Origin: Eledone cirrhosa
Lineage: Eukaryota
DNA length: 64,000 nucleotides
Assembly (NCBI GenBank): GCA_964016885.1
Contig: OZ024740.1
Location: 121,396,001-121,460,000 of the forward strand
Direction of reading: 5' to 3'
The translations under genes and the position numbers were made by a program. Within the stretch, counting starts at the first letter, position 1, and each line of letters begins with the position of its first letter. This document shows, piece after piece, positions 1 through 60,284 of this stretch. The notes below the pieces were generated by a model. That model saw nothing but the letters and a program-made list of their open reading frames with translations, was not told where the DNA came from and did no database searches.

Positions 1-125
1 AACCCCGTATCTCGGGAACACGTGCTTCGTTTTACTTGAAGCTTGTTTTATTCTATTTGTATTCCCATTTCAGAGGCAAATTCCTTTCAAAGAATTTTCC
101 TATTATGCACCCTTTTGGCTAGTGG
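1..125 (-). repeat. Dispersed repeat fragment (probable 5' end of a non-autonomous Helitron family), copy 1, cut by window edge
   Basis: aaccccgtatctcgggaacacgtgcttcg...caaattcctttcaaag...ttatgcacccttttggct recurs at ~1160-1335 and ~2745-2940. Confidence 0.55.
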
Positions 126-548
126 TCAAGTTTCTGATTTTTGCCTGTCAGCGAGAAGCCCGGGTTCATCTAGCCCTGTGATGATTCCTAGCCATTTTGA
201 ATTTGTTTCTGGCGAGGAACATGTAAGAAAAATCCAATTGAGTTATCTCCTGGTGATCTCCAACCACGTTGATTTATGCAAGAACGGATATAACTAAAAA
301 TGGGGGTAGAGATATCTTGAAGATTTTGGTAGGTTTAACTTACATTTTTTTTGTAACTTTAATTTTGTACCTAATTATGTATGGTTAACCACATGTCTAT
401 TCATTTTTCTCCAGGCTATCAGAAATAGTATGATTTGATATATGAAATACCTCTACGGTCTTGATATTTTAATTCCAGTATTGGCAGTGCCAAAACTGGA
501 ATTGAAATATCAAGACCGTAGAGGTATGTCATATATCAAATCATATAT

Positions 549-611
549 TTTATCTGACGAGGACGTACTGGAAAACAAACAACACTGTACCTTCGAAATA
601 TATATAATAAA
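549..611 (+). ncRNA. Type I hammerhead ribozyme (PLE-associated)
   Basis: TTTAT-CTGACGA(554-560)-stem II GG..GTAC/GTAC.CTTC-GAAA(595-598)-palindromic stem III ATATATAT-A cleavage (ATA)-ATAAA pairing with TTTAT; degenerate paralogue at ~43380-43510. Confidence 0.7.
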
Positions 612-681
612 GCATATATTTTTATTATGTGAATATCTTCATTTGTTAATATTTTGAATAATATATATATAATTTATTATT

Positions 682-1042
682 AATAATCTCCCCCTGGTCG
701 AGATGAAATCTGGTCATTTTGACTACTGCTATTTATAGTGGTAGTAGACTGACCTCCCTGTCTTTGCTTCTACCTTTACACACGGCACTGGACAGAATTG
801 CTTCCACATCATTCATTCTCATCTCGGGAACAATTTTGAATAGCGCCAGTTCGTAATTTGAACTCGGGAATTTGATATTCTCCGAGTGAAAAGAATCTTC
901 TGACGAGAGTTTATCTTTTCAATGGAAGCCCACAATGACTTTCCATTTATTTTTGAGACTCGAAACCGATTCGGTAAAGGTAAGTCCAGTGATTTAAAAA
1001 AAAATTAATTTTGAAAATATTTCTTATTTGCTAAATCTTGAT

Positions 1043-1045
<3 letters not shown>
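682..1045 (+). mobile_element. Short non-coding hammerhead-bearing element (PLE pLTR/retrozyme-like) flanked by (TA)n
   Basis: Closely similar to 17460-18225; contains hammerhead at 896-980; ends in (TA)n. Confidence 0.7.
896..980 (+). ncRNA. Type I hammerhead ribozyme
   Basis: TCTT-CTGACGA(900-906)-GAGTTT...AGACTC-GAAA(962-965)-CCGATTCGG-TA-AAGG; stem III ACCGA/TCGGT, GTA cleavage triplet. Confidence 0.8.
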
Positions 1046-1124
<79 letters not shown>

Positions 1125-1159
1125 ACAACACCACTACCTCTCTCTCTCTCTCTATTTAA

Positions 1160-1335
1160 GAAAGTACCCGGAAAAACCCCGTATCTCGGGAACACATGAT
1201 CCGTTTTACGCCAAGCTTGTTTTATTCCATTTATAGTCCGATTTCTGGGTCAAATTCCTTTCAAAGTATTCTCCCATTATGCACCCTTTTGGCTGTATTA
1301 CCAGCAAGCAAGCAATCACAGAGTTTTAGTTGTAT
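1160..1335 (-). repeat. Dispersed repeat copy 2 (probable Helitron 5' end)
   Basis: Similar to 1-125 and 2745-2940. Confidence 0.55.
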
Positions 1336-1489
1336 ACTAGACCGCCCGTGACCCGTTGTATCAAGTTCAGTTCAAAATATTTTTTTTAAATCATGTTCAC
1401 TTAAAATAATGTTTAGATAATTAAAATATACACTGACATGTACATAATGTGAAATTAAACTGGAAGGTTCATATATATATACGTGCGTG

Positions 1490-1551
<62 letters not shown>

Positions 1552-1571
1552 ACAAATGTGTATGTTTCTAT

Positions 1572-1602
<31 letters not shown>

Positions 1603-2407
1603 CTAGCTGATGTACCCGATAATACTCGGGAACGGGGATATTCCCAGTTCCCATTAAAATGCCCAATGTTTCTCAGACCAAAAATGAAATCAAAATATAG
1701 GACAGATAATGAAAAGCGAAGACAAATTCATTTACGAAACAATAATACAAACAAATATTGTTGATTGCATTGGTCAGGCGAAAAAATATTTGTCAGAGGA
1801 GTTGAGTGTTGCTATAAGGAAAAATATAGAACCCCCATTAAGATCTTAATATTATTGAAATTTGCTGAACTTTTGTGAATAAGCATTACATCATGTCCTT
1901 TACCTATAGTTTAAATTTCATGTAAATCGAAAGGAAAATATTTTCAGCTGGGGTTTTGTGCCCCCGGGGAACCATTTGAATAAAATGAAATATACTTAGC
2001 AAAGTACCCTGGGCAATGAGGTTTCAGAATATATATGGTTATGGGGTCTATCTCCAAAAGCATAGGAGGAGTTCGTGAAATCTTGTTCCATTTATTGGCC
2101 AAACCTTTCACTATAGGGGTTTAAACCCCATTAGGGTGTTTCAATATTGAAATTTGCTGAAATTGTATGAATAGGCATCATATCTTGTCCTTTACCTAGG
2201 GTTTGAATTTCATATGAATCGAAAGGAAACAATTTTCAGCGGGGGTTTGAGCCCGCGGGGAACCCTTTGATTAAAATGAAATATACGCAAGAAATCAAAA
2301 GGCCATGAGCCCCACGCACGTGTAAAATTTCATCAAGATCGGTTTGTTAGTCTTTGAGCTTTAGGTTCACAAACAAACAGACAGAAATTGCCATTTATGT
2401 ATATAGA
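1603..2407 (-). mobile_element. Non-autonomous Helitron
   Basis: Minus strand starts TCTATATACATAAATGGCAATTTCTGTCTGTTTGTTT and ends with hairpin CCCGAGTATTATCGGG followed 8 nt later by CTAG|T; internal diverged direct repeat ~1830-2000 vs ~2125-2290. Confidence 0.75.
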
Positions 2408-2502
2408 TATAGATGTGTATATATATATATATATATATTTATGTATGTGTGTGTGTATATATATATGTGGGTGTCTGTGATGTATCTACACTGGTCATAG
2501 AA

Positions 2503-2599
<97 letters not shown>

Positions 2600-2744
2600 T
2601 CACATATATACATACACAACAACACCACCAGCACTCTTCCATTATCCTTCTCTTTCTCCTCTCCCTCTCTCTATGTCTCTCTTTCAATCTACTCTCTAAC
2701 AACCACTATCTCTTTCTCTCAATCCTTTTCTCCCTGTGTTTATG

Positions 2745-2940
2745 AAGGTACCCGGAAAAACCCCATATCTCGGGAACACGTGCTTCGATTTACACCAAAC
2801 TTGTTTAACTCCATTTATTTTCCCATTTCAGGGTCAAATTCCTTTCAAAGTCTTTACCGATTATGCGCCCTTTTGGCTGTATTACATTACAACCAAGGAA
2901 GCAAGTAAGCAATCACTGACGTTTAGTAATATATAGATAG
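2745..2940 (-). repeat. Dispersed repeat copy 3 (probable Helitron 5' end)
   Basis: Minus strand begins TCTATATATTACTAAACG; similar to 1-125 and 1160-1335. Confidence 0.55.
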
Positions 2941-3461
2941 ATAGATATAGATGGACTGATGGTGAGATGACGCAGGCTGACGGCAGGTAAATGTGATGAG
3001 AGTGGATGAGAAGAGAAGTGAGCTCGAGAGAGTGTGTGTGGGAGAGAAAATTACGGAGGAATAGAGGAAGTGGGTTCATGCAATTTGGACATACTTTTTC
3101 ATCTCTCTACACCTCACCTACGAAAGTCAGTTTTCCACTGCTTCTTGCGTTTGAGGTTGCACAACTAAAAAGCACCATATGTTATCCATTTATTTATAGT
3201 TATAATTTTGTTCGAATTAATATCACTTTTTTGTCGAAAGACTACCATAAATTTTATTATCCATTTTTTGTTGCATATTTCTGTAAAAAAATCGATTATT
3301 CGATCTGTTATGCAATCTGACATCACGTGTGTAGTAACACCTTAATGTGGGAAACTGCACTGCCCATAAAGTGGATGACGAAATAAGAATGGTGGTGTCG
3401 TTCGTCGTGCGTGTATGTGTGCATCTCCTGCCAATATGTGTCTATATATATATATATATAT

Positions 3462-3540
<79 letters not shown>

Positions 3541-3555
3541 GGGAGAGGGAGATAG

Positions 3556-3590
<35 letters not shown>

Positions 3591-6109
3591 TCGACTAGGA
3601 GTTAGGAAAATGTAAACAAGAATTGATGAAGATTATATATATAAGGGAGGTCAAGACTGAAAATTAGCATAGGGAAGAAGTACAGCCCAATGAGCGTGCG
3701 TATTAATTTAACGTGGGAAATAATAGGTAAACAGTTTTAATGTAAATAACGTTAGAAAGAGAAGAGAGAATGTTAGGGATTGAAATAGGGACTTAGGATG
3801 AGAGACGATAGTAAAACATAGAAAAGAAAGGCAAATAAATAAACAAGAAGGCACGTGTTCGTTACTCGTCTATTTTGAATTATATACAAAAATAAACGTA
3901 ACATCTCATACAATAGAAGTAGAATTTAATCCTGTCTTTAAAGCATCTAATTAATTCAAGTCTGTTTTCAATTATCATATTCACTATAAAATATCATGTT
4001 ATATGCCCGTCCTTTTACTTTAATGACCACTGGAATACGACGAAGCATGCTGGATTTAAGCACCTGGAAGATTTAAGCATCTGAAAATTAAATATTTCAT
4101 ATATGCAATATTAAATAACACATACAACGAAATAGACTCCCATAAAAACACCAAAGCGCTAGGTGGAATAATTAAACTAAGTGACGGATCGTGTCTACTT
4201 ACACAAAATTGGAACGGCCCTCATTTCTGAGAGATCTGCACCCTGTTTCCGTCTATCAATTTCCCTCAAGTCAATTTGATGGAAGTGGGGCTCTTCTAGA
4301 AGACTTGCACAATATGAGGAACCGTAAAATTAAACTAAACGTTAAACAGCAATGCCTTTGCCTCGGTACACATACATTTTCCCATGGATTTTACACTAAA
4401 ATATGAATATACTGAAAGCAAAGAAATTGATTCACTGTAGTCATTGAAGTGAAACATATCTCAAAAGGAGCTAAAATCACCCAGAACAATATTGCTACAA
4501 TGTGCAGGTTGGATCACACAGCTATACACACGCACAACATTAAACAAATTCATCTGAATCCTTAATGTAATATAAATTGATTGACTCTAACGTCACATGA
4601 AAAAATACAAAGAAAAATCCTAAAATACACAGTTGAGAAATTTTGTAATATATTCCTTCCCATGCAAACTCGCTGAAATAAGAAAGAAGCTGTCATTGTA
4701 ATATGTAAACGAGATGCTTTTGAATAAAACCGAATGAAACTGACAAAAAATATAAAATAAATAAATTAAAAAAAGGAAATAATATGTAAGAAATCAATAG
4801 TTATTTTTGGAGGTGTTGAAACCGGTTTCCTACATCGGAAGTAATTGAATAAGAAAATATAAAACGAAAAAGAAATCTAACAAAATGCAAAATTACGATG
4901 AAATATTAGCGGAAAGCACGGCTGTCATATTTTGTAGCTGCTAAAGCTGAGTAAAAATAAATTAAGCTACCATGAAGATTTCTATTAGAGGAATGGGGAA
5001 TGGAAGAAACGCAACATTATTACTAGAATTTATGATAAATCTGTTATATATGAGTGAATTGATCACGTAGTTGTTTACATACATTTATTCTGAAACATTT
5101 TTTATTAACACAACGATACGGAACGTTCACACCAAAGCTTCACACACGCATTCTATACTAATCGGAGAGAAAATAACTACAATGAGCTACAGAGACTACA
5201 AAAACACAAAGACAGTTGTAGATACGGTGAAAATCATGCTATGTGTTTCACATTTGGGCACACATGCTAGGGGTAAAGGAAAATATAGATGAAATATGTT
5301 CACATACTAACACAGACATATCTATTGTTGATAACTGTTTCTCATTAAAACAAAAGTCTAGCAATTTACTTGGATGGGAAATACAGTTATATGGATCCAA
5401 TTGCATGGACTTTATATTATCGAACCCAAATTCTGTAAGCAAAAGAACGTAGACGGCTGTAACTAAATGTCATTTCACCAAACTCATAACGATAGTTTCA
5501 AATGCACGCATAATACCAACTACATACAGCCTTTTGATCGAAATGATATCAATTCTGCCAATCTATGACTCATATATCAAACATTGGTAATACAAGCACG
5601 GCCATATATACTTGTTCATGTAATGCTCTGAAGCAAACAGGGAACCCCACAGTGTACATATTTACATTTAAGACACAACATATTATATACAATGTGTGTG
5701 TACATATGTATATCTGTGTGTATATGTGTGTGTGTGTGTATGTATATATATATATGTTTTTTATGCATATACATATGTATGTATAAATATATATATGTAT
5801 GTGTGTGTGTGAGTGTGTGTTTTTGTGTGTTTGTGTGTGTGTATCTGTGTGTGTATAAGATTATATATATACCGCAGCTAATTTTATATTTGGGGCTTAG
5901 AACTTCGGGATGAAGTGGCACATTAAAAGATCCAGATTTTCCGAATGTACGTTTTTTAAACAACACAAAATTATACCTGCAATCTCACCTGTTACCAATA
6001 ATTTTAAGACCAACGGTAAAAAACAGCCGACGCCTAAACATTCTTATCGTTATATATATTAATTTTATTGCGTTAGAACATACATATGCTAACGTCTTGT
6101 TGCTAGTAA

Positions 6110-29435: not shown

Positions 29436-30948
<1,513 letters not shown>

Positions 30949-31041
<93 letters not shown>
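30949..31041 (+). repeat. (TAA)n microsatellite, target/tail of Dong-like elements
   Basis: Pure TAA array separating two family A copies. Confidence 0.95.
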
Positions 31042-31042
<1 letters not shown>

Positions 31043-34000
31043 GGGAAGTAGACGCACGAGGTGGTAGAAGGTCAAGAAATCGCTCCCGTAAGTTTTTGAT
31101 TTTTAACATATTTAAATCAATTGTGAAATAACAAGTCTTAGTACAAATGTTGCATAAACCACAGAATCAAGTCCCATAAAATTTCGGATCCATATTATAT
31201 TGTTATATCGCTCAAATATTCAATTTTGTATTATATATTTTGTATAAAAAAAAAAGAAAATGGTTATAAATGGAAGAAAACACCCTCTGTCTACACTATA
31301 TAGAACAGCCAAATAACAGCAATTTCACCAACACCAGAAACTTGATACACTACCTACCCCATCACACTAAATATAACAGCGAGATAACGGCAATTTCACC
31401 ACCATCACCACCAATCCCAGCATCATAATTATAATTACTATTATTATTGTCCCAAGTTTTAACAAAATGTTTAATTCCAATTTTACGGGAATATGTCAAC
31501 ACAATATATATTAAACATACGAACACAAACTCATATACTACGTATCACAAAACTCAGTAACGGCAATGCCACCGCCGCCTCCACTCCCTCCATCATTGCT
31601 ACCACTATCCCATCACCGCCGCCACCACTCCTTCATTGCTACCACCACTATTCCCCTGTTAACTTGAGAGAGAAAGGGGAAGGTGGCGGTATCACTAGAC
31701 AAGGGAGAGGCTAGCAAAAGATATAAATAGATTGACTTAGTGACCTGGCCACCGGCCAAACGTCAACATCAACAACTATGGGACTGCTGGCTCACCCCTT
31801 CCTCACCAACAATATAAAAAGCCCCGGCACCACCACCGACATAGCCAACAACAATAACAGGCCACTTCAGCAAAAATTATATTATATTATTGTAATGCAC
31901 TGGGTGATTGCTGGCCTTGTGCCTGGAGTGGAGACAATTATTAATAATTTCATTCTTAAGACACGCAATGCTCACGTTAAGGAACCACTCATGATAATAA
32001 CAATTTAAAAAAACAACAAAAAGAAAACCCCGTGACCAAGAAATACCGGGATGGCGGCCGGCGGGGAATAGCCGTGTCTCTAGGGGAGAACGACCCCTCT
32101 AGTCTTGGTTGACACTCGTTCTAGAAGTGGTAACACGAAATGATTACCCCTTGGCGGATAAGGATAAAACGCGACAAAATAAAGTAAATGTCTAATGATA
32201 AAATCTCATACCGGATCGGCCGTCACCCGGGTAAAAAAGGGCCGCGTCCCTCAGAGAGGAACCAGACTGAGGTCGAAAAATCAGCTAATGGTTCAAACCT
32301 TCCCATCACTTCGGAGCTGGAGACCTCCCACAACCGGAATACTCCTACTGTTGGCCCTCCATGCTCACCACCAAGAAATCCAAAGAAAAAGAGAGAAAAA
32401 TGGTCAAGGGAAGATAATAAAGAAGTCCTTGAGGCTTTCTACACTGCCATGTACTACCCATCAAATACATCGAATACAGAACAGACATATATCAACTGGA
32501 AAAGAAACATCCCGAAAACAGAGGCTATATTGACAGTAACAAACTAACCAATATACGAAGAAATATTGTAAGAAAAAAGCTTCTAACTGATATAGAAATT
32601 GATCAGATCAAGCTATTAGCACAAAGTCAGCGAAGGGAAAATGAAACATGTGTCAGTGAGAACGTGGTAAATTGTAACACTTCGAATCCCAGGGTTGGGG
32701 CGGAATCACTGGCAACAGAACAAATTGAAGAAAGGATCGAAAAAGTGGAGGGAGTGCATGCTCAAGATGAAATTCCAAATGAAAATAATGAGATCGTAAA
32801 TGATAAAGTAATGAATGAGAATGAACTTGCCAACTTGAAGGATGAAATTATGATCGAATGGATGAAAATAAAGAATCTGACATGGGGCAACGAGACACCC
32901 TCCCTAAGATCCAGAACTCCAAACAGAACCAAAAGATAATACACAAGACTAACATAATTCTCAAAAACAATATCATCACAAACAAACTAAACATTACTGA
33001 CTTAAATCATCTCTATTATGCATCGGCTAAAGTCACCACTCACTTATGTGGAGTGAAGATGAAAAAACAAAGGAATTACCACAAGAAATCTACTTGGCAA
33101 GAGAACATCAATCGCCAAATAAACCTTCTCCGATCTGACATAGAAATGTTAACAAACTATAAAGTAGGAGAACATGTTAAACAAACTAAACTTAGAAAAT
33201 TGAGAAAAAGGTACAGTATAAAATCAACATGTGACATAGACATGCTGATAGAAATAATCAAGCAAAAAGTGTCGGCCAAAGCTGCTCGTATAAGGCGCTT
33301 TGAAAAACGATCTAGATTCTATAAGGACAATAATATGTTCAAAAACAACCAAAGGAACTTCTACAGAAAAATTGGTAAGTCAACAATAACTGCTAAATCA
33401 ATACAACCCAAGGAGGAAGTGCAAGAATTCTGGGAAAAGATCTGGGCCAAAGAAAAAGTTCATAACATACATGCCCCATGGATACACAGACAAATGAAAG
33501 ATACAGCTCACCTTGAAGAACAAATATGGGAAAACATAACAGTTGAACAGTTGCGCTTCGGCTCTAAGATAAACCAGCAAATGGAAATCCCCAGGAAAAG
33601 ACAAATTACAAAACTTTTGGATAAATGCCTTCACAGAGTCTCATGAGCTGTTAGCCCAACTTTACAATGAAATAGTTAAGGAGCCAGAAAAGATACCATC
33701 ATGGCTAGTTAACGGCATTACATTCCTGCTTCCGAAGAATGATGAGACAAACAATCCCAAAAATTACAGACCGATAACTTGCTTGACCACAATGTATAAC
33801 ATTTTAACATCAGTCCTAACTGAATACACATATGACCACCTGATAACAAATGACCTATTTCCCATTGAGCAGAAAGGGTGTAAACGAGGCTCATATGGCT
33901 GTAAGGATCAGCTTCTGGTTAACAAAATGATACTGGAAGATTGTCATAATAGACACAAAAATCTATCGATTGATTGGATAAATTATAAAAAAAGCATTCG

Positions 34001-35982
34001 ATACTTTGCCACACAGTTGGATTGAAAAATGTTTAGAGATTTTCAAAATATCCCCCGTTGTCAGGAGGTTTTTGTCATTCAGTATGAAGACATGGAGAAC
34101 GACACTCCTTTTGAATAGTGAAACAAAATCACTGGAAGCTGGAGAAGTTAATATTAATTGTGGAATTTTTCAGGGTGACTCTTTATCACCGCTTTTATTC
34201 TACATCGCACTTATACCATTAAGTAAAATGCTCAATGAAACAAAACATGGATATAAAGTCTATGACAAAACCATTAATCACCTGTTCTACATGGATGACC
34301 TGAAACTATTTGCAAAAAATGATGAACAATTGCAAGGGCTATTATCCACTGTGGAGCAGTTCAGTGATGACATTAAAATGGAGTTTGGACTTGATAAATG
34401 CGCCAAAGCAACGTTCACGAGAGGAAAGCTGCTGAAGAGTTCAGACATTAATCTTGATCGGGGGAACGTGATCAGAGAACTCGATCAAGAAAAAACTTAC
34501 AATATCTAGGTTTTTGTGAAGGAGACGGAATCAAGCACTCGACAATGAGGGAAAGGATAAGGAAGGAATGTTACTGCAGAGTAAGAGCAATCTTAAGAAC
34601 GGAATTGAATGCAAGGAATAGGATCGATGCCATAAACACGCTTGCCATACCAGTAGTAACCTACAGTTACAATGTCATCAACTGGTCAAGCACAGAGATC
34701 CGTAGGCTCGATACAAAAATTCGAAAATTCTTAACCATGCACAGAATGCATCACCCTAAGTCAGATATAGATAGAATATATCTCCCTAGGAAAAAAGGAG
34801 GACGTGGGTTAATCCAGTTAGACATTGCGTTGAAAACTGCAACAATTGGATTATCTACATATCTGAGGGAATCACATGATTGGATGATCAAACTCGTTTT
34901 GAAACACGAAAGCATCAAAAGATCATATTCCATTACAAAAGATGCACAAAGATACAGTAATGGACTACAAATTTCAGAAATCCCATTTACTGCTGAAATG
35001 GAAAACACAGAAAATGCAAAGCAGGTAAAAGTAACTGCAAAGAAAGAACTGCTACAGAAACTGGCTAAGAAATGGCAAGAAAAGCCTCTGTATGGAAAAT
35101 ACCCAGAGCGAGCTAACAATCCTGATGTTGACAAAACTTTAACCCATCAGTGGTTGGCATCCTCTGGACTGAAATCGGAGACTGAAGGACTGATTATATC
35201 AGCACAAGATCAGTGTCTGCCAACAACAAATTACCAAGCCAACATAATAAAAAATGGATGCAGCCCAGTATGCCGTGTATGCAAAAAACAACCAGAGACC
35301 ATTGACCATATAATTTCAATGTGCAGTCCTATAGCTCCAACCGAATACCTAAACAGGCATGGCAGAGCTGCACAATACATACATTGGATAATGTGTAAGC
35401 ATTTTGACATGCCCCATCAAAAGAATTGGTGGGAGCATCAACCACCTGCCATACTCTAAAAAGATCACATCTCAATCTTGTGGAACTTTAGCATCCAAAC
35501 AGACCGAAAAATAGATGCAAATAGACCTGATATAATATTGAAGGACTTTAAAAAGAGGGTATGCCTGCTAATTGATATGTCTGTTCCAATAGACAAGAAT
35601 GTATCTATAAAAACATTTGAAAAATTGAGCAAGTATAAGGACCTGGAGATAGAAATTGGAAAAATGTGGAAATTGAGAACTAAAACAATACCAGTGGTTG
35701 TAGGCGCTCTGGGAATGATACCTAAGGGGTCTAATGATTACTTATCGCAAATCCCAGGAAACCCGCGTATAGGAGAATTACAAAAGATAGTACTAAAGGG
35801 AAATGCCCATATACTAAGGAAGATTCTATCAACATAAGTACATCACAAGTCTAAACACTAAAGATGCATGTGTGAGTATATATGTTCTTTCTTGAACATG
35901 GCGGACCTTGTTGTCTCTTGAGGTCACTGGTTGTGACTTGGTTATAACTCGTATGAACATAAAGCAAGATAAATTCAGCTGT
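31042..35982 (+). mobile_element. Near full-length R4/Dong-like non-LTR retrotransposon (family A), frameshifted
   Basis: Long 5' region, single decayed ORF 32188-35837, 3' UTR ending in (TAA)n; 5' boundary inferred from the TAA array. Confidence 0.9.
32188..35837 (+). pseudogene. RT-zinc knuckle-REL polyprotein of family A (disrupted)
   Basis: YRPITCL, EQKGC, DQLL, PHSW, GIFQGDSLSPLLF, HLFYMDDLKLF, FGLDKC, GGRGL, CRVCKKQPETIDHIISMC (CCHC), RPDII..LIDMSVP..KLSKYKDL, PVVVGALG across successive ORF fragments. Confidence 0.93.
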
Positions 35983-36001
35983 AATAATAATAATAATTAT
36001 T

Positions 36002-39000
36002 CGGGAAGAAAACGCACATGGTGGATATATATCGTTACGGAATCGCTCCCGTAAGTTTTTGATTTTTACTTCTTTAAAACAACTGTGATAGAATAATTCG
36101 TATTACAAATGAACAATACGATTACAGTTTTCACGTTCAGCAAGCCATAACGCATAGGGCCCCAATATTTAATATTTAATTTTGCATCAGAAATGTTATA
36201 GTCGAAAATGAGGAAAATGGCAAAATGCTAAATAGCTAAATAGCTAAATGGCTAAGTGGACAGCAGAAATATAATTTTAGAACCAACACCACCACCACTA
36301 CCACGCTAAAAAATCTAGTCATGTTACCTCAACTTCTATTTCTACTTCAACTTCAACACCATCACTACAGTACTACGATCACACCACTACCACCATTGCC
36401 ACATTATCGCTACCGCAGCTATTCTCTCCCACTACCTCCTGCAAAGACATGCATCGTAGTGTCCCCACTAAAAGAGGAAGGCATCAAAATACATAAATAG
36501 ACTGATTTGATGACCCGGTCATAAAATCAAAAAACCAAAAATCAAAATCAAAGCAGCACAGCAACAACGAAAAACGTAAAGAAAAGAAAAATGAAAAGAA
36601 AAACAAACAGACAGAGAAGGGAAGGGAAAAAGTAAGTCAGACATTCAAACATTACATTATAATGAAACTTATGCTTATTCTTATTTTTTATTTTTTTTTT
36701 ACCTATTTGTTTGTTTGTTTATTTATGTTCGTCTACAGCGTGATAGTGCCACACAAAAAATCACCAGGAGTGATGAAATCACCGGTGGTGATGAAATCAC
36801 CGGTGGTTATGTAACCATACATTCACCAATCCTCGATAAGAGTGTTTAAATGTCGAACCTAAACAGTTCGAATTACGGTGAAGTGGAGACTAGAATGTCA
36901 TGTGACAGACTCTCATCAGCAGGTGCTCCCTGGCTCAGCAGCAGGGACCTTGCTGTCAACCAAATACTGCTGGTGTCGGAGGAAGAATAAGAAGGAAAGG
37001 CACCAGAACCAACTGGACGAAAGAATTGAATAGAAGTGTTATGCAATGTTACCTGAAGAGTAACCCCAAGGAGAAAGGCTAGAGGAAACGGATGCATAAC
37101 ATCTGGAACGAGATTGATCTACGTAAATTAGATGAACAAAAATTGGCCAGCAGGCTCGGGTAATAAGAACTAATGGTTGGATAAACGAGCTGGAACTGGA
37201 GGAACTGAGTAGAGAGATTAAGTTGGAAATGGAGAGTGGAGTATGCCAGGCAAACGAGCCAGTGGGAAATGAAGGTGAAGAGTTTGAGAGAACGGAGGAA
37301 CCATCCGAAGCAGACAATGATCTGAATGCTGAAATAAATAATACCTGGAACAAAGATACGGCCATTGAGGAGATGAATGCTGACAGGCTAGGACAAGATT
37401 TGGTTGATATCCTAAACTTAGTGGTAGATGAATTGAACGATGATAGTGGGAAACCTATGAAACTAAGATTTGTAGACAGGATAAATTTAAAGAAACAACA
37501 GTTAAGGTAAACAAAGTCATCCCATACCTTGAGGCGAGGAGCCTTCAACAGTGCAACAATATCCTCAAAGCAACAGCAAATGTGGTGATGAAATTACTTG
37601 GTATAAAAGCGAGAGGAAACAACAAACAAGAAAGATCATGGCCTTGGTGGAAGAGCGACTGAATGGTCAAATCAGGGAAATGAGAAATGACATTGGAAAG
37701 CTTGAGTCCCTACCGAATGGGACACTAAAAAACATAGACACTAAAAATAGACTGGAAATAAAGTACAAAACTAGGAGTAAAAAACTATATATTATCATAG
37801 AGGAACTGAGGCAACGCATTGTAGCAAAGAGTGCAAAAATTAGGCGATACGAGAGCAGAATCAGTCAGTATAGGCAGAACCGCATGTTTGACAACAACCA
37901 GAAGTTGCTGTTTGGACAGCTTGAAGGGAAAGAAAGAGGCAACGACTTGATCCCTGAGGCGGAACAAACCAAGACATTCTGGAGAGGAATATGGGAGCAG
38001 GATGTTAAACATAATGACCAGGCTGTGTGGATTGAGACAGTACAAAAGGAGATTAGTGAACAGACACACCAACAAACTGATTTGAGTATCACTGTTGAAA
38101 TTCTTAAGGGGCAGGCCAAAAAAACTAACCAGCTGGAAATCACCAGGCCCAGATGGTGTGCAGGCGTATTGGATTAAAAATATAACATCCCTCCACCCGA
38201 AACTTGCAACCATATTCAATGAATGTTTGATGTCAGGTGAGGTACCAGAGTGGTTGACAAAAGATACCACAGTTCTGGTAATGAAAGACCGAATCAAGGG
38301 CAATGATGTTACCAACTATAGACCTATCACATGTCTGTCCGTAATGTGGAAACTGTTGACAAGCATTATGTCTGAGGAAATCTAACATCACCTGCACACA
38401 AACAACTTGTTACCGGACGAACAGAAAGGATGCCGAAAGAAGTCCCGTGGTGCAAAGGACCAGTTACTTATTGATAAGATGGTAATGAGGAATTGCAGGA
38501 GGAGACACACTGATCTTGCCATGGGATGGATAGACTACAAAAAGGCATTTGACATGGTGCCTCATTTTTGGATAACGAAAAGCCTAGAGATCTTCAAGGT
38601 GGCAGATAACATCAGACAGTTGTTGGGCAAAAGTATGAAGTCCTGGAAAACAGAGTTAAGATCAGCTGGAGAATCCTTGGGAGGCGTGAAGATCAAGAGA
38701 GGTATCTTCCAGTGAGATAGGTTGTCCCTGACCATTATACTGCGAAAAGTGAGAGCAGGATACAAGTTGGGAAAGGGAGAGTTTACCATCAATCACCTCC
38801 TCTTCATGGACGATCTTAAGCTCTTCGGGAAAAGTGAGAAGGTGTTGGGTGTGCTTCTTGACACTGTCCGTATTTTCAGCAATTATATATGTATGCAATT
38901 TGGTATTAGTGAGTGTGGAGTCCTTGTGATGAAGAGGGGTACATTGAGCAGAAGCAACGGAATCCAGGTACCAACAGGTGAGATGATAAAGGAAATTGAC

Positions 39001-40306
39001 ACTGAAGAAGGATACAAGTATTTGGGTGTTCTGGAGGCTGATGACATCAAGAACAAAAAAATGAAGGAATTGATAAGATCTGAATACATTCGGAGAGTAA
39101 GGAGCGTATTAAAGTCACATGAACAGTAGGAATGCCATAAGTGCAGTAAATTCCCGAGCTGTGTCTATTATTAGGTACAGTGCGGGAATTCTGAGATGGA
39201 ATGTTGCTGAACAAAAAGAAATGGATAGGATGACTAGGAAGCTATTGACTATCTACAACATGTTCCACAAGAGGAGTGATGTCGATAGACTCTACTTAAG
39301 GAGATCTGAAGTTGGAAGAGGTGTTATCAGCATAGAGGACTGTGTTCAGATGGAGAAAAACAACCTACGTGACTGATAATAAGGAGCCAATGCTCAGAAC
39401 TGTACTGAAGGAGAGGACAATAGACCAGGGGATGTCCAGGGAGGAAATAACAACAAGGAGAAAGAGCAACCTTCATAAAAAATCCCTTCATAGTACCTTC
39501 TTTGAGAAAACTGAATTCAGAGATCCACAGGCATGGAACTGGTTGAAAAGAGGAGACCTTAAAAAGGCTACATAAGGAATGCTAATGGCTGCGGAAGAGC
39601 AGGCCCTCAAAACGAAGTGGTTGAAACACCATATTTACAAGGAGGAGGCCAGCCCACTGTGCAGGATCTGTGGAGAGAGAGAGGAGACTGTGGCTCACAT
39701 TGTATCCGAGTGTAAACACCTAGCCCAGACTCACTATAAGGGCTGGAGATATGATGTGATGGGGAGGGTGATCCACTGGCACCTATGCAAAGTAAACAAT
39801 TTACCACATTCTGAGAAGTGGTATGAGCATAAACCAGGGTCGGTGATAGAAAACGATCAGGTGAAGGTGCTGTGGGATTTTAGGATACAGACGGACAAGA
39901 AACTGGAACACAATAGACCTGACCTGGTGGTTTTGGCAAATAAAAAAATCGTGCCTGATTGTGAATGTGGCCTGCCCATTCGACACGAGAGTGCAAGAGA
40001 AGGAGAGGGAGAAAATTAACCGATACCAGGACTTAAAGTGGGAGGAAAAAGGATTTGGAACTTCTATGAAGTCAAAGTGGTCCTGATTGTCATAGGCGCA
40101 CTAGGTACTATCTCAAGGAGTTTCCAGGGATGGTTAAAAAAAATTGGCCCCGCCCCGCCTTTTGGAACACTTCAAAAGGCATGCTTGCTGGGAGCGGCAA
40201 GAACCCTCCGATACGTCCTGAATATCTGAGGCTGCAGGTAGTGGTTTGATATTCATTTCAAGAAACTTTCCAGTTAACTAACATCAATGACTGAGACTCA
40301 AAGAAC

Positions 40307-40307
<1 letters not shown>
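36002..40307 (+). mobile_element. Near full-length R4/Dong-like non-LTR retrotransposon (family B), frameshifted
   Basis: Begins right after the TAA tail of family A and ends in (TAA)n at 40308. Confidence 0.88.
36900..40229 (+). pseudogene. RT-zinc knuckle-REL polyprotein of family B (disrupted)
   Basis: [84 protein letters not shown]; start position approximate. Confidence 0.92.
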
Positions 40308-40336
<29 letters not shown>

Positions 40337-58879: not shown

Positions 58880-59516
58880 TATAAGCAGAACAAGCAAAAT
58901 TCAACCAATTTTTTAAAATAAATTAAAAAATATAATTTAAATATTTACCTATTCATATGGCTCTTACCGATCGGTTTCGCCTTGTAAAACACCAGAGACC
59001 CAATGGATTTCTAATGGAAAATCAAGGCTCATCAGAGAAGCATTTTCCTTTCCTAGGGCTAAAGACCCAGGAACGATAAAATATATCGTTATCTGCCAGC
59101 TAGCACAGATCCAAAAGGCCGAAAAATGACCTGTACGTGAACTACCCGAGGTTAAAGCGGGAAAAACATAGACGTGTTGTCTATCTCGTTACTAAAAATA
59201 GCAGCTAAATAGAATCAACATGATTGATTACCATAGAACAACCTTAAATCATAGACAACCTATGTATTTCCAGGGGTACTTAGTACCCACGGGCTTACTA
59301 ACTTCTTCTATCACCCTCCATTTGTTGAGAACAATCATGTTGATTCTATTTAGCTGCTATTTTTAGTAACGAGATAGACAACACGTCTATGTTTTTCCCG
59401 CTTTAACCTCGGGTAGTTCACGTACAGGTCATTTTTCGGCCTTTTGGATCTGTGCTAGCTGGCAGATAACGATATATTTTATCGTTCCTGGGTCTTTAGC
59501 CCTAGGAAAGGAAAAT

Positions 59517-59598
59517 GCTTCTCTGATGAGCCTTGATTTTCCATTAGAAATCCATTGGGTCTCTGGTGTTTTACAAGGCGAAACCGATCGGTAAGAGC
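59517..59598 (+). ncRNA. Type I hammerhead ribozyme, unit 1
   Basis: GCTTCT-CTGATGA(59523-59529)-GCCTTG...CAAGGC-GAAA(59580-59583)-CCGATCGG-TA-AGAGC; stem III palindrome ACCGATCGGT. Confidence 0.88.
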
Positions 59599-59997
59599 CA
59601 TATGAATAGGTAAATATTTAAATTATATTTTTTAATTTATTTTAAAAAATTGGTTGAATTTTGCTTGTTCTGCTTATATTAATATTATAGTTCTGGTATG
59701 TCAAATTGATACCATAGAACAACCTTAAATCATAGACAACCTATGTATTTCCAGGGGTACTTAGTACCCACGGGCTTACTAACTTCTTCTATCACCCTCC
59801 ATTTGTTGAGAACAATCATGTTGATTCTATTTAGCTGCTATTTTTAGTAACGAGATAGACAACACGTCTATGTTTTTCCCGCTTTAACCTCGGGTAGTTC
59901 ACGTACAGGTCATTTTTCGGCCTTTTGGATCTGTGCTAGCTGGCAGATAACGATATATTTTATCGTTCCTGGGTCTTTAGCCCTAGGAAAGGAAAAT

Positions 59998-60079
59998 GCT
60001 TCTCTGATGAGCCTTGATTTTCCATTAGAAATCCATTGGGTCTCTGGTGTTTTACAAGGCGAAACCGATCGGTAAGAGC
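59998..60079 (+). ncRNA. Type I hammerhead ribozyme, unit 2
   Basis: Same sequence as 59517-59598 shifted by 481 nt. Confidence 0.88.
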
Positions 60080-60284
60080 CATATGAATAGGTAAATATTT
60101 AAATTATATTTTTTAATTTATTTTAAAAAATTGGTTGAATTTTGCTTGTTCTGCTTATATTAATATTATAGTTCTGGTATGTCAAATTGATACCATAGAA
60201 CAACCTTAAATCATAGACAACCTATGTATTTCCAGGGGTACTTAGTACCCACGGGCTTACTAACTTCTTCTATATATATATATA

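Follow-up and report, generated by a model that had tools for sequence, protein, structure and literature searches.

A splice donor in the leader shared by two R4/Dong-like retrotransposon families of Eledone cirrhosa, with rare, very likely spliced insertions

A donor-bearing leader and its probable spliced copies

A 64,000-nucleotide (nt) stretch of the Eledone cirrhosa genome (contig OZ024740.1, positions 121,396,001 to 121,460,000; hereafter the window, with coordinates counted from its first base and on the forward strand unless noted) contains two adjoining frameshifted retrotransposon copies, element A (31043 to 35985) and element B (36003 to 40310), each preceded by a TAA run. Both begin with the same kind of 5' leader, in which a short first segment is followed by the splice donor GTAAGT. 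This donor very likely works, at least occasionally, because six independent insertions of such elements are deleted exactly from its GT, compared with none and one at neighboring control positions. We conclude that the shared donor-bearing leader and its spliced copies, which recall the spliced retrotransposed elements (SpIREs) of human L1, are a real feature of this R4/Dong-like lineage.

Deletions starting exactly at the donor

Copies whose exon end is followed by anything but GT were searched for, and all 30 matches were fetched. Seven were chance matches with no exon 1, 16 were leaders with a substitution or a 1-nt loss, and the remaining seven loci carried long deletions, every one of which begins exactly at the donor G. 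An adjacent pair (L129/L130) shares a private variant, which leaves six independent events, and a second search, with all 45 matches examined, added no further event. Neither search can detect a junction in which GT opens the second exon, or a copy with a mutated exon end, and the figure of six events among about 1,980 copies (about 0.3% spliced) covers the remaining kinds of junction; more than 99% of the counted copies keep the sequence that follows the donor. The spliced copies form no subfamily, being five single copies and the adjacent pair.

The end points of the deletions lie at four different places. The junction of two copies from different A subfamilies (L133 and L139) lies at +167/168 from the donor (31256/31257 in the window), immediately after AAAAAAG, with no microhomology. 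This near acceptor AG (31255 to 31256 in element A, 169 nt from the donor and followed by AAAATGG) was missed in the initial annotation; further junctions to it, with up to three mismatches allowed, amounted only to the two already known. The deletion of L129/L130 ends 5 nt before the same AG. In one A-type and one B-type copy (L121 and L128), the donor is joined to an insert resembling a short interspersed element (SINE), at the G that follows TTTAG; unspliced relatives carry that insert in their leaders, and 7 of the 26 copies borne in leaders and 24 of the 50 free ones have the AG. The last event, L147, ends about 9 nt past the acceptor proposed for element A, or else used that acceptor and lost 9 further bases; nearly its whole leader is gone, yet a long copy was inserted. 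An AG end is certain in two of the six events and likely in two (the AG of the SINE-like repeat being polymorphic), while the other two are not at AG in the nearest relatives.

If the GT were incidental, the six deletions would mark a local hotspot at which the reverse transcriptase jumped or repair removed sequence, and it is true that internal deletions are common in these copies and that two of the six end off AG. However, controls of the same design gave no long deletion among 17 matches at +6/+7 (one of about 16 nt) and a single one, not ending at AG, among 56 matches at -3/-2, so that six of seven long deletions fall in one of three windows (P 0.007). A background estimated from seven private deletions in 111 copies (0.16 per position) gives a Poisson P of about 2e-8, a rough value, as the background may be undercounted. 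Moreover, two copies from different subfamilies have the identical junction, which shows no microhomology, and an AG site lies at the end of four of the six events, compared with an AG frequency of 4.6% per base (P about 6e-5 accepting both SINE AGs, 0.03 counting two only). We regard an incidental GT as very improbable.

Two further patterns among the spliced copies were considered and found unsupported. Selection against the SINE acceptor in leaders (7 AG to 15 TG, versus 24 to 24 in free copies) had a P of 0.20, and a shortage of spliced copies in the young subfamily described below (0 of 743 versus 6 of about 1,230) a P of 0.09.

The initial annotation had proposed one specific intron in each element, running from the donors (31088 to 31093 in A and 36051 to 36056 in B) to acceptor AGs at 31959 to 31960 and 36737 to 36738, that is, intervals of 873 and 688 nt after first exons of 45 nt (31043 to 31087) and 48 nt (36003 to 36050). 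All of these coordinates are correct, the first segment is retained in the copies deleted from the donor, and L128, which carries a B open reading frame (ORF), is deleted from the position homologous to the B donor. The two introns themselves found no support: exact joins of exon 1 to either far acceptor numbered zero, as did joins to the B acceptor with up to three mismatches, and none occurred among the 30 donor matches. For the A acceptor, there is one imperfect junction nearby, that of L147. Insertions lacking the sequence from GT do exist, but their end points are scattered rather than placed at the proposed acceptors.

The leader as the 5' end of two element families

The window contains two instances of a 26-mer spanning the donor (none in shuffles), and the genome 675 exact ones (none for the reversed-pattern control); a looser pattern of exon end plus GT occurs in 1,973 genomic copies (control 0). 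We examined 90 of the first 100 places listed for the 26-mer, three of the fetched regions containing two places each, and 20 regions from the looser pattern, all on contig C1. Of 131 distinct copies that were clustered, 123 continue, over no more than 1.9 kb, into an ORF region of type A or B. The leader is thus the 5' end of two R4/Dong-like families and is present in about 2,000 copies. An independent repeat that targets TAA runs and merely lies beside Dong ORFs, or a captured spliced-leader RNA, is largely refuted by these 123 copies and can hardly be credited. A 45-nt exon-like segment followed by GT and U-rich tracts bears a superficial likeness to spliced-leader RNAs, but the leader gave no Rfam match near the gathering score and no conserved fold, and we saw no sign of the capture that had been suggested.

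A start of the copies at GGGAAG is supported. Among 113 copies not picked for variants, 70 begin with GGGAA(G/T) 44 to 50 nt before the donor and 43 do not (in 36, GGG is missing but a TAA/AAG run directly adjoins; the other 7 are of different kinds). A TAA/AAG run is found at the 5' junction of 104 of the 113, and the 3' ends lie in TAA runs. Where the TAA run meets the element, which itself starts with GAAGAAG, an (AAG)n tract often intervenes (L005, L006, L018, L212, L214, and L217 are examples), perhaps through slippage as reverse transcription finished. Elements also stack head to tail, with many leaders coming after the 3' terminus of an A element, of a B element, or of one of two other recurring tails.

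One young, mostly B-type subfamily, counted by its exon variant, has at least 743 5'-complete copies and includes intact ORFs, with 1,126 to 1,141 stop-free codons in 7 of 22 rows examined. In this subfamily, the first ATG of the ORF reads ATA (14 matches), and the next ATG lies ten codons downstream.

Conservation and exchange of leaders

The start of the leader is more conserved between the two families than their proteins are. The first 110 nt of elements A and B are 78% identical (E 2.7e-19), versus 26 to 58% amino acid identity per tblastx segment between the ORFs, which bears out the shared start noticed in the initial annotation. However, the likeness extends about 60 nt beyond the donor, and what is shared is therefore more than a mini-exon with its donor. 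A second shared block (ATAAATAGA...TGACC; 31723 to 31745 in A, 36493 to 36515 in B) is also present, as described, but it is weak (37 nt at 78%, E 0.005) and eroded in the youngest subfamily.

Four leader clades, 18 to 39% divergent over the first 230 nt, could be distinguished. One of them bears 51 A and 8 B ORFs and another 14 B and 2 A ORFs; on this sequence comparison, leader types have been exchanged between ORF families and the leader behaves as a swappable module. Across the four clades, 60 of 75 columns are invariant at -15 to +60 around the donor (31073 to 31147 in A), compared with 22 of 60 at +61 to +120, although positions -11 to +2 were fixed by the copy search and -10 to +16 partly so. 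GTAAGT is kept across copies but it is not singled out, because the whole 75-nt block is conserved. We predict that this block is a promoter element.

Several other features of the leader were recorded. Exon 1 ends in ATG-RAA-TCG-CTC-CC, to which the donor adds G-TAA, making a five-codon upstream ORF in unspliced RNA. Of 93 copies chosen without regard to this ATG, 80 have it, and both window copies (31074 to 31091 and 36037 to 36054) carry it in mutated form; judging from the distances, it would still be out of frame with the main ORF after splicing to either far acceptor. Of 131 leaders, 116 have the motif AANATGG, which we take to resemble a YY1 site, between +150 and +200 (31257 to 31263 in the window); in B it is tandemly repeated (36206 to 36259). 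The abundant SINE-like repeat mentioned above shares the TAA-run targets, starts in about half of its copies with the acceptor-like TTTCTACTTTAG followed by G, and has been incorporated in both orientations into several leader subfamilies (L011, L215, L216, and L078 among others). An antisense fragment of it lies within the leader of element A (31889 to 31940, reverse strand), as in some A subfamilies only.

How the donor may be used

We consider it fairly probable that the donor lies inside an internal promoter block, that unspliced RNA is the template for new insertions, and that splicing is a rare event, as in L1 SpIREs. Transcription would start at or near GGGAAG from an internal polymerase II promoter, and the unspliced RNA would serve both as the main message and as the template that is copied into (TAA)n by target-primed reverse transcription. 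Now and then the spliceosome would join the donor to an available downstream AG, and the resulting RNAs would also insert; like L1 SpIREs, the relics left behind would be without much of the promoter. The donor would be kept either through overlap with a needed promoter element or through recruitment of the U1 small nuclear ribonucleoprotein (snRNP), two reasons that are inseparable here. Spliced RNA is evidently not barred from insertion, because L147 inserted a long copy with nearly its whole leader lost. If spliced RNA can insert, numerous copies would be expected from an abundant spliced mRNA, unless it were excluded from the integration complex. In favor of rare splicing, no copy joins the B far acceptor, although weak sites left copies.

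Several observations weigh against this explanation. Promoter activity and the start site are predictions only. The far acceptor of B is conserved (14 of 15 columns) and stands at a near-fixed distance from the ATG, as that of a real intron would. Three of the six events cluster at +163 to +168, which may be a dedicated acceptor, and two of the six (L129/L130 and L147) end off AG in their nearest relatives. The AG of the two SINE events is reconstructed from a repeat that carries it in the fractions given above, and spliced copies with a GT-initial second exon or a mutated exon end would escape detection. Finally, an unspliced message would bear 6 to 16 upstream ATGs in its first 800 nt.

Some of these points would fit a true intron retained in the 5' untranslated region (5' UTR), of the kind known from Penelope. 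The spliced mRNA would be made via the near (+167) or the far acceptor, the unspliced RNA would be the preferred template, and the six copies would be leakage. Over four B-ORF groups, the invariance at the B far acceptor compares with 59 of 90 columns just upstream, and 45 of 46 copies have the AG. Exon 2 is of near-fixed length, whereas the leader upstream of the acceptor ranges from about 500 to 1,300 nt; the leader, in turn, tolerates SINE-like inserts, duplications, and swaps. Splicing at the far site would strip most of the upstream ATGs, and the cluster at +163 to +168 would find a natural place. There is also a precedent, since the 5'-UTR intron of Penelope and Chlamys-3 is reported to overlap the internal promoter (PMC8557442). 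On the other hand, not a single copy has the B far-acceptor junction despite the at least 743 young, mostly B-type copies, while weak sites did leave copies. The conservation of the acceptor may reflect shared descent of an ORF-side module that starts about 110 to 170 nt upstream. Such an intron also requires that spliced RNA be excluded from insertion, and L147 shows that RNA of this sort inserts. We therefore rate a retained intron as possible but unlikely. The same holds for the wider scenario that could be built on it, in which an R4/Dong lineage would have exchanged an ancestral 5' self-cleaving ribozyme for a swappable polymerase II promoter module with a true intron, establishing a Penelope-like two-RNA cycle in a long interspersed element (LINE) with donor and far acceptor both under selection; this too we hold only tentatively.

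A third explanation concerns the reason for the conservation of the GT. The donor may be kept mainly as a landing site for U1 snRNP, boosting transcription or suppressing early polyadenylation of an A-rich RNA, with splicing as a side effect. U1 suppresses early polyadenylation, and the four copies in which AATAAA was counted have three to five of these signals per element. A perfect GTAAGT near the 5' end occurs in all four leader clades, although it was partly fixed by the search. However, conservation covers 75 nt, well beyond the 9-nt U1 site, and the literature search turned up no title on such an element. This account shares most of its steps with the SpIRE-like one, from which it departs in the reason given for conservation of the GT; as the main reason, we think a U1 site improbable.

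Protein, clade assignment, and 5' structure

A relative with an intact frame (L226) has a single ORF of 1,141 codons with an RVT_1 match (E 5e-23); its best matches in the PDB are R2 proteins (E 1e-29), with L1 ORF2 at 1e-13. Toward the C terminus, we read in the translation, by eye, CRIC...H...C and RPDLVV...D...K, which we take to be a CCHC motif and the PD..D motif of a restriction-like endonuclease. A zf-RVT match was weak and below the cut-off, and a profile search of the protein found no other endonuclease family. Although no named Dong or R4 protein appeared among the 120 homologs listed, the single R2-related reverse transcriptase ORF, the putative CCHC and restriction-like endonuclease motifs, and the insertion into (TAA)n place the elements as R4/Dong-like.

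Nothing unusual was found in the predicted fold of the 5' end (z scores from -0.5 to +2.1, with no conserved fold). An Rfam scan of the leader returned four chance-level matches and no hepatitis delta virus (HDV) ribozyme. An HDV-like descriptor matched none of 131 leaders and none of 120 shuffles, the descriptor being a strict motif run with no positive control, and no conserved L3-type heptamer was found within the first 300 nt of the leaders. These results lean toward the absence of a 5' HDV-like ribozyme. A hidden ORF1 in the leader was also considered and rejected, as the ATG past the near acceptor opens only 3 to 75 codons in frames that are not conserved.

Other features of the window and its relatives

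Element A follows a (TAA)n target run (30948 to 31042; 31.7 copies at 100% in Tandem Repeats Finder). Other copies align over its positions 1 to 4943 at about 89 to 97%, and it has an RVT_1 match. Its ORF (32188 to 35830, with an approximate end), which encodes the reverse transcriptase, the CCHC motif, and the restriction-like endonuclease, is broken, as is that of B (36850 to 40229, end also approximate), an element that ends in (AAT)n and has relatives with intact frames elsewhere in the genome. Both elements are full length, close to what the initial annotation had noted, but both are frameshifted relics. An in-frame TAA abuts the first ATG in both families (32185 to 32190 and 36847 to 36852), and TAAATG is found in 86 of 110 anchor matches.

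Upstream of element A lies a 5'-truncated A copy (29537 to 30640), with a 279-bp tandem duplication in its leader and an internal deletion from just past the ORF start to the 3' part. At 59223 to 60273, there is a tandem repeat with a 481-bp unit in 2.2 copies that are 99% identical. In the fetched flanks, other Dong families were represented by fragments only. An unrelated reverse transcriptase ORF, 24% identical to that of family A, adjoins one leader copy (L100:219-1115, reverse strand) and probably belongs to another LINE clade. No relative was confirmed among 256 pattern matches in metagenome contigs.

Comparison with known systems

Abundant, recently active Dong-R4 families with near-full-length copies have been described in octopus (PMC13282606 and PMC9115989), and those of E. 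cirrhosa are alike in these respects. The main text of PMC13282606 contains neither "intron" nor "splic", and that of PMC9115989 does not contain "splic". We found no description of a donor, an intron, or a spliced copy in an R4/Dong leader in a literature search that left most subscription journals and Repbase outside its reach.

Within the clade, Bombyx Dong and Ascaris R4 have an HDV-like ribozyme at their start, and its cleavage site is the 5' junction (PMC3774820). The elements described here are like them in their single ORF with reverse transcriptase, CCHC motif, and restriction-like endonuclease, and they are like Dong in having the 5' junction in TAA repeats. They differ in a 0.65- to 1.45-kb leader with a splice donor, in which no such ribozyme fold was detected (with no positive control).

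Penelope and Chlamys-3 keep a 5'-UTR intron that overlaps a proposed internal promoter, and their spliced mRNA is documented (PMC8557442). The likeness lies in a short first exon followed by GT in a proposed promoter region, and in an interval kept in nearly all copies. Penelope and Chlamys-3 are, however, Penelope-like elements with a GIY-YIG domain and pseudo-long terminal repeats (pLTRs), whereas the present elements are LINEs whose spliced genomic copies have four different end points and show no dominant acceptor. Should RNA reveal a dominant spliced mRNA here, the rule that introns cannot persist in LINEs would be called into question.

A close parallel is with human L1, where a 5'-UTR donor with rare spliced copies is already known (Larson et al. 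2018, PMC5860796; commentary PMC5860798): a single conserved donor inside a RUNX3 site is joined to several acceptors, and about 2% of the copies are spliced. The two systems share the single donor in the 5' UTR, the multiple acceptors, and the rarity of spliced insertions (about 2% versus about 0.3% here). L1 has two ORFs and an apurinic/apyrimidinic-like endonuclease, and its promoter and the overlap with RUNX3 have been tested, whereas here there is a single ORF, a restriction-like endonuclease, and a predicted promoter. Unlike in L1, the leader here is common to families whose ORFs are only 26 to 58% identical. Our results carry spliced retrotransposed elements beyond primate L1, into an early-branching clade whose endonuclease is restriction-like and whose studied members have a 5' ribozyme. 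They suggest that R4/Dong now joins L1 and Penelope-like elements as a group in which a short exon with a donor has come to lie beside an internal promoter, and the young subfamily, with its many 5'-complete copies and several intact ORFs, offers direct material on why retroelements keep a rarely used donor.

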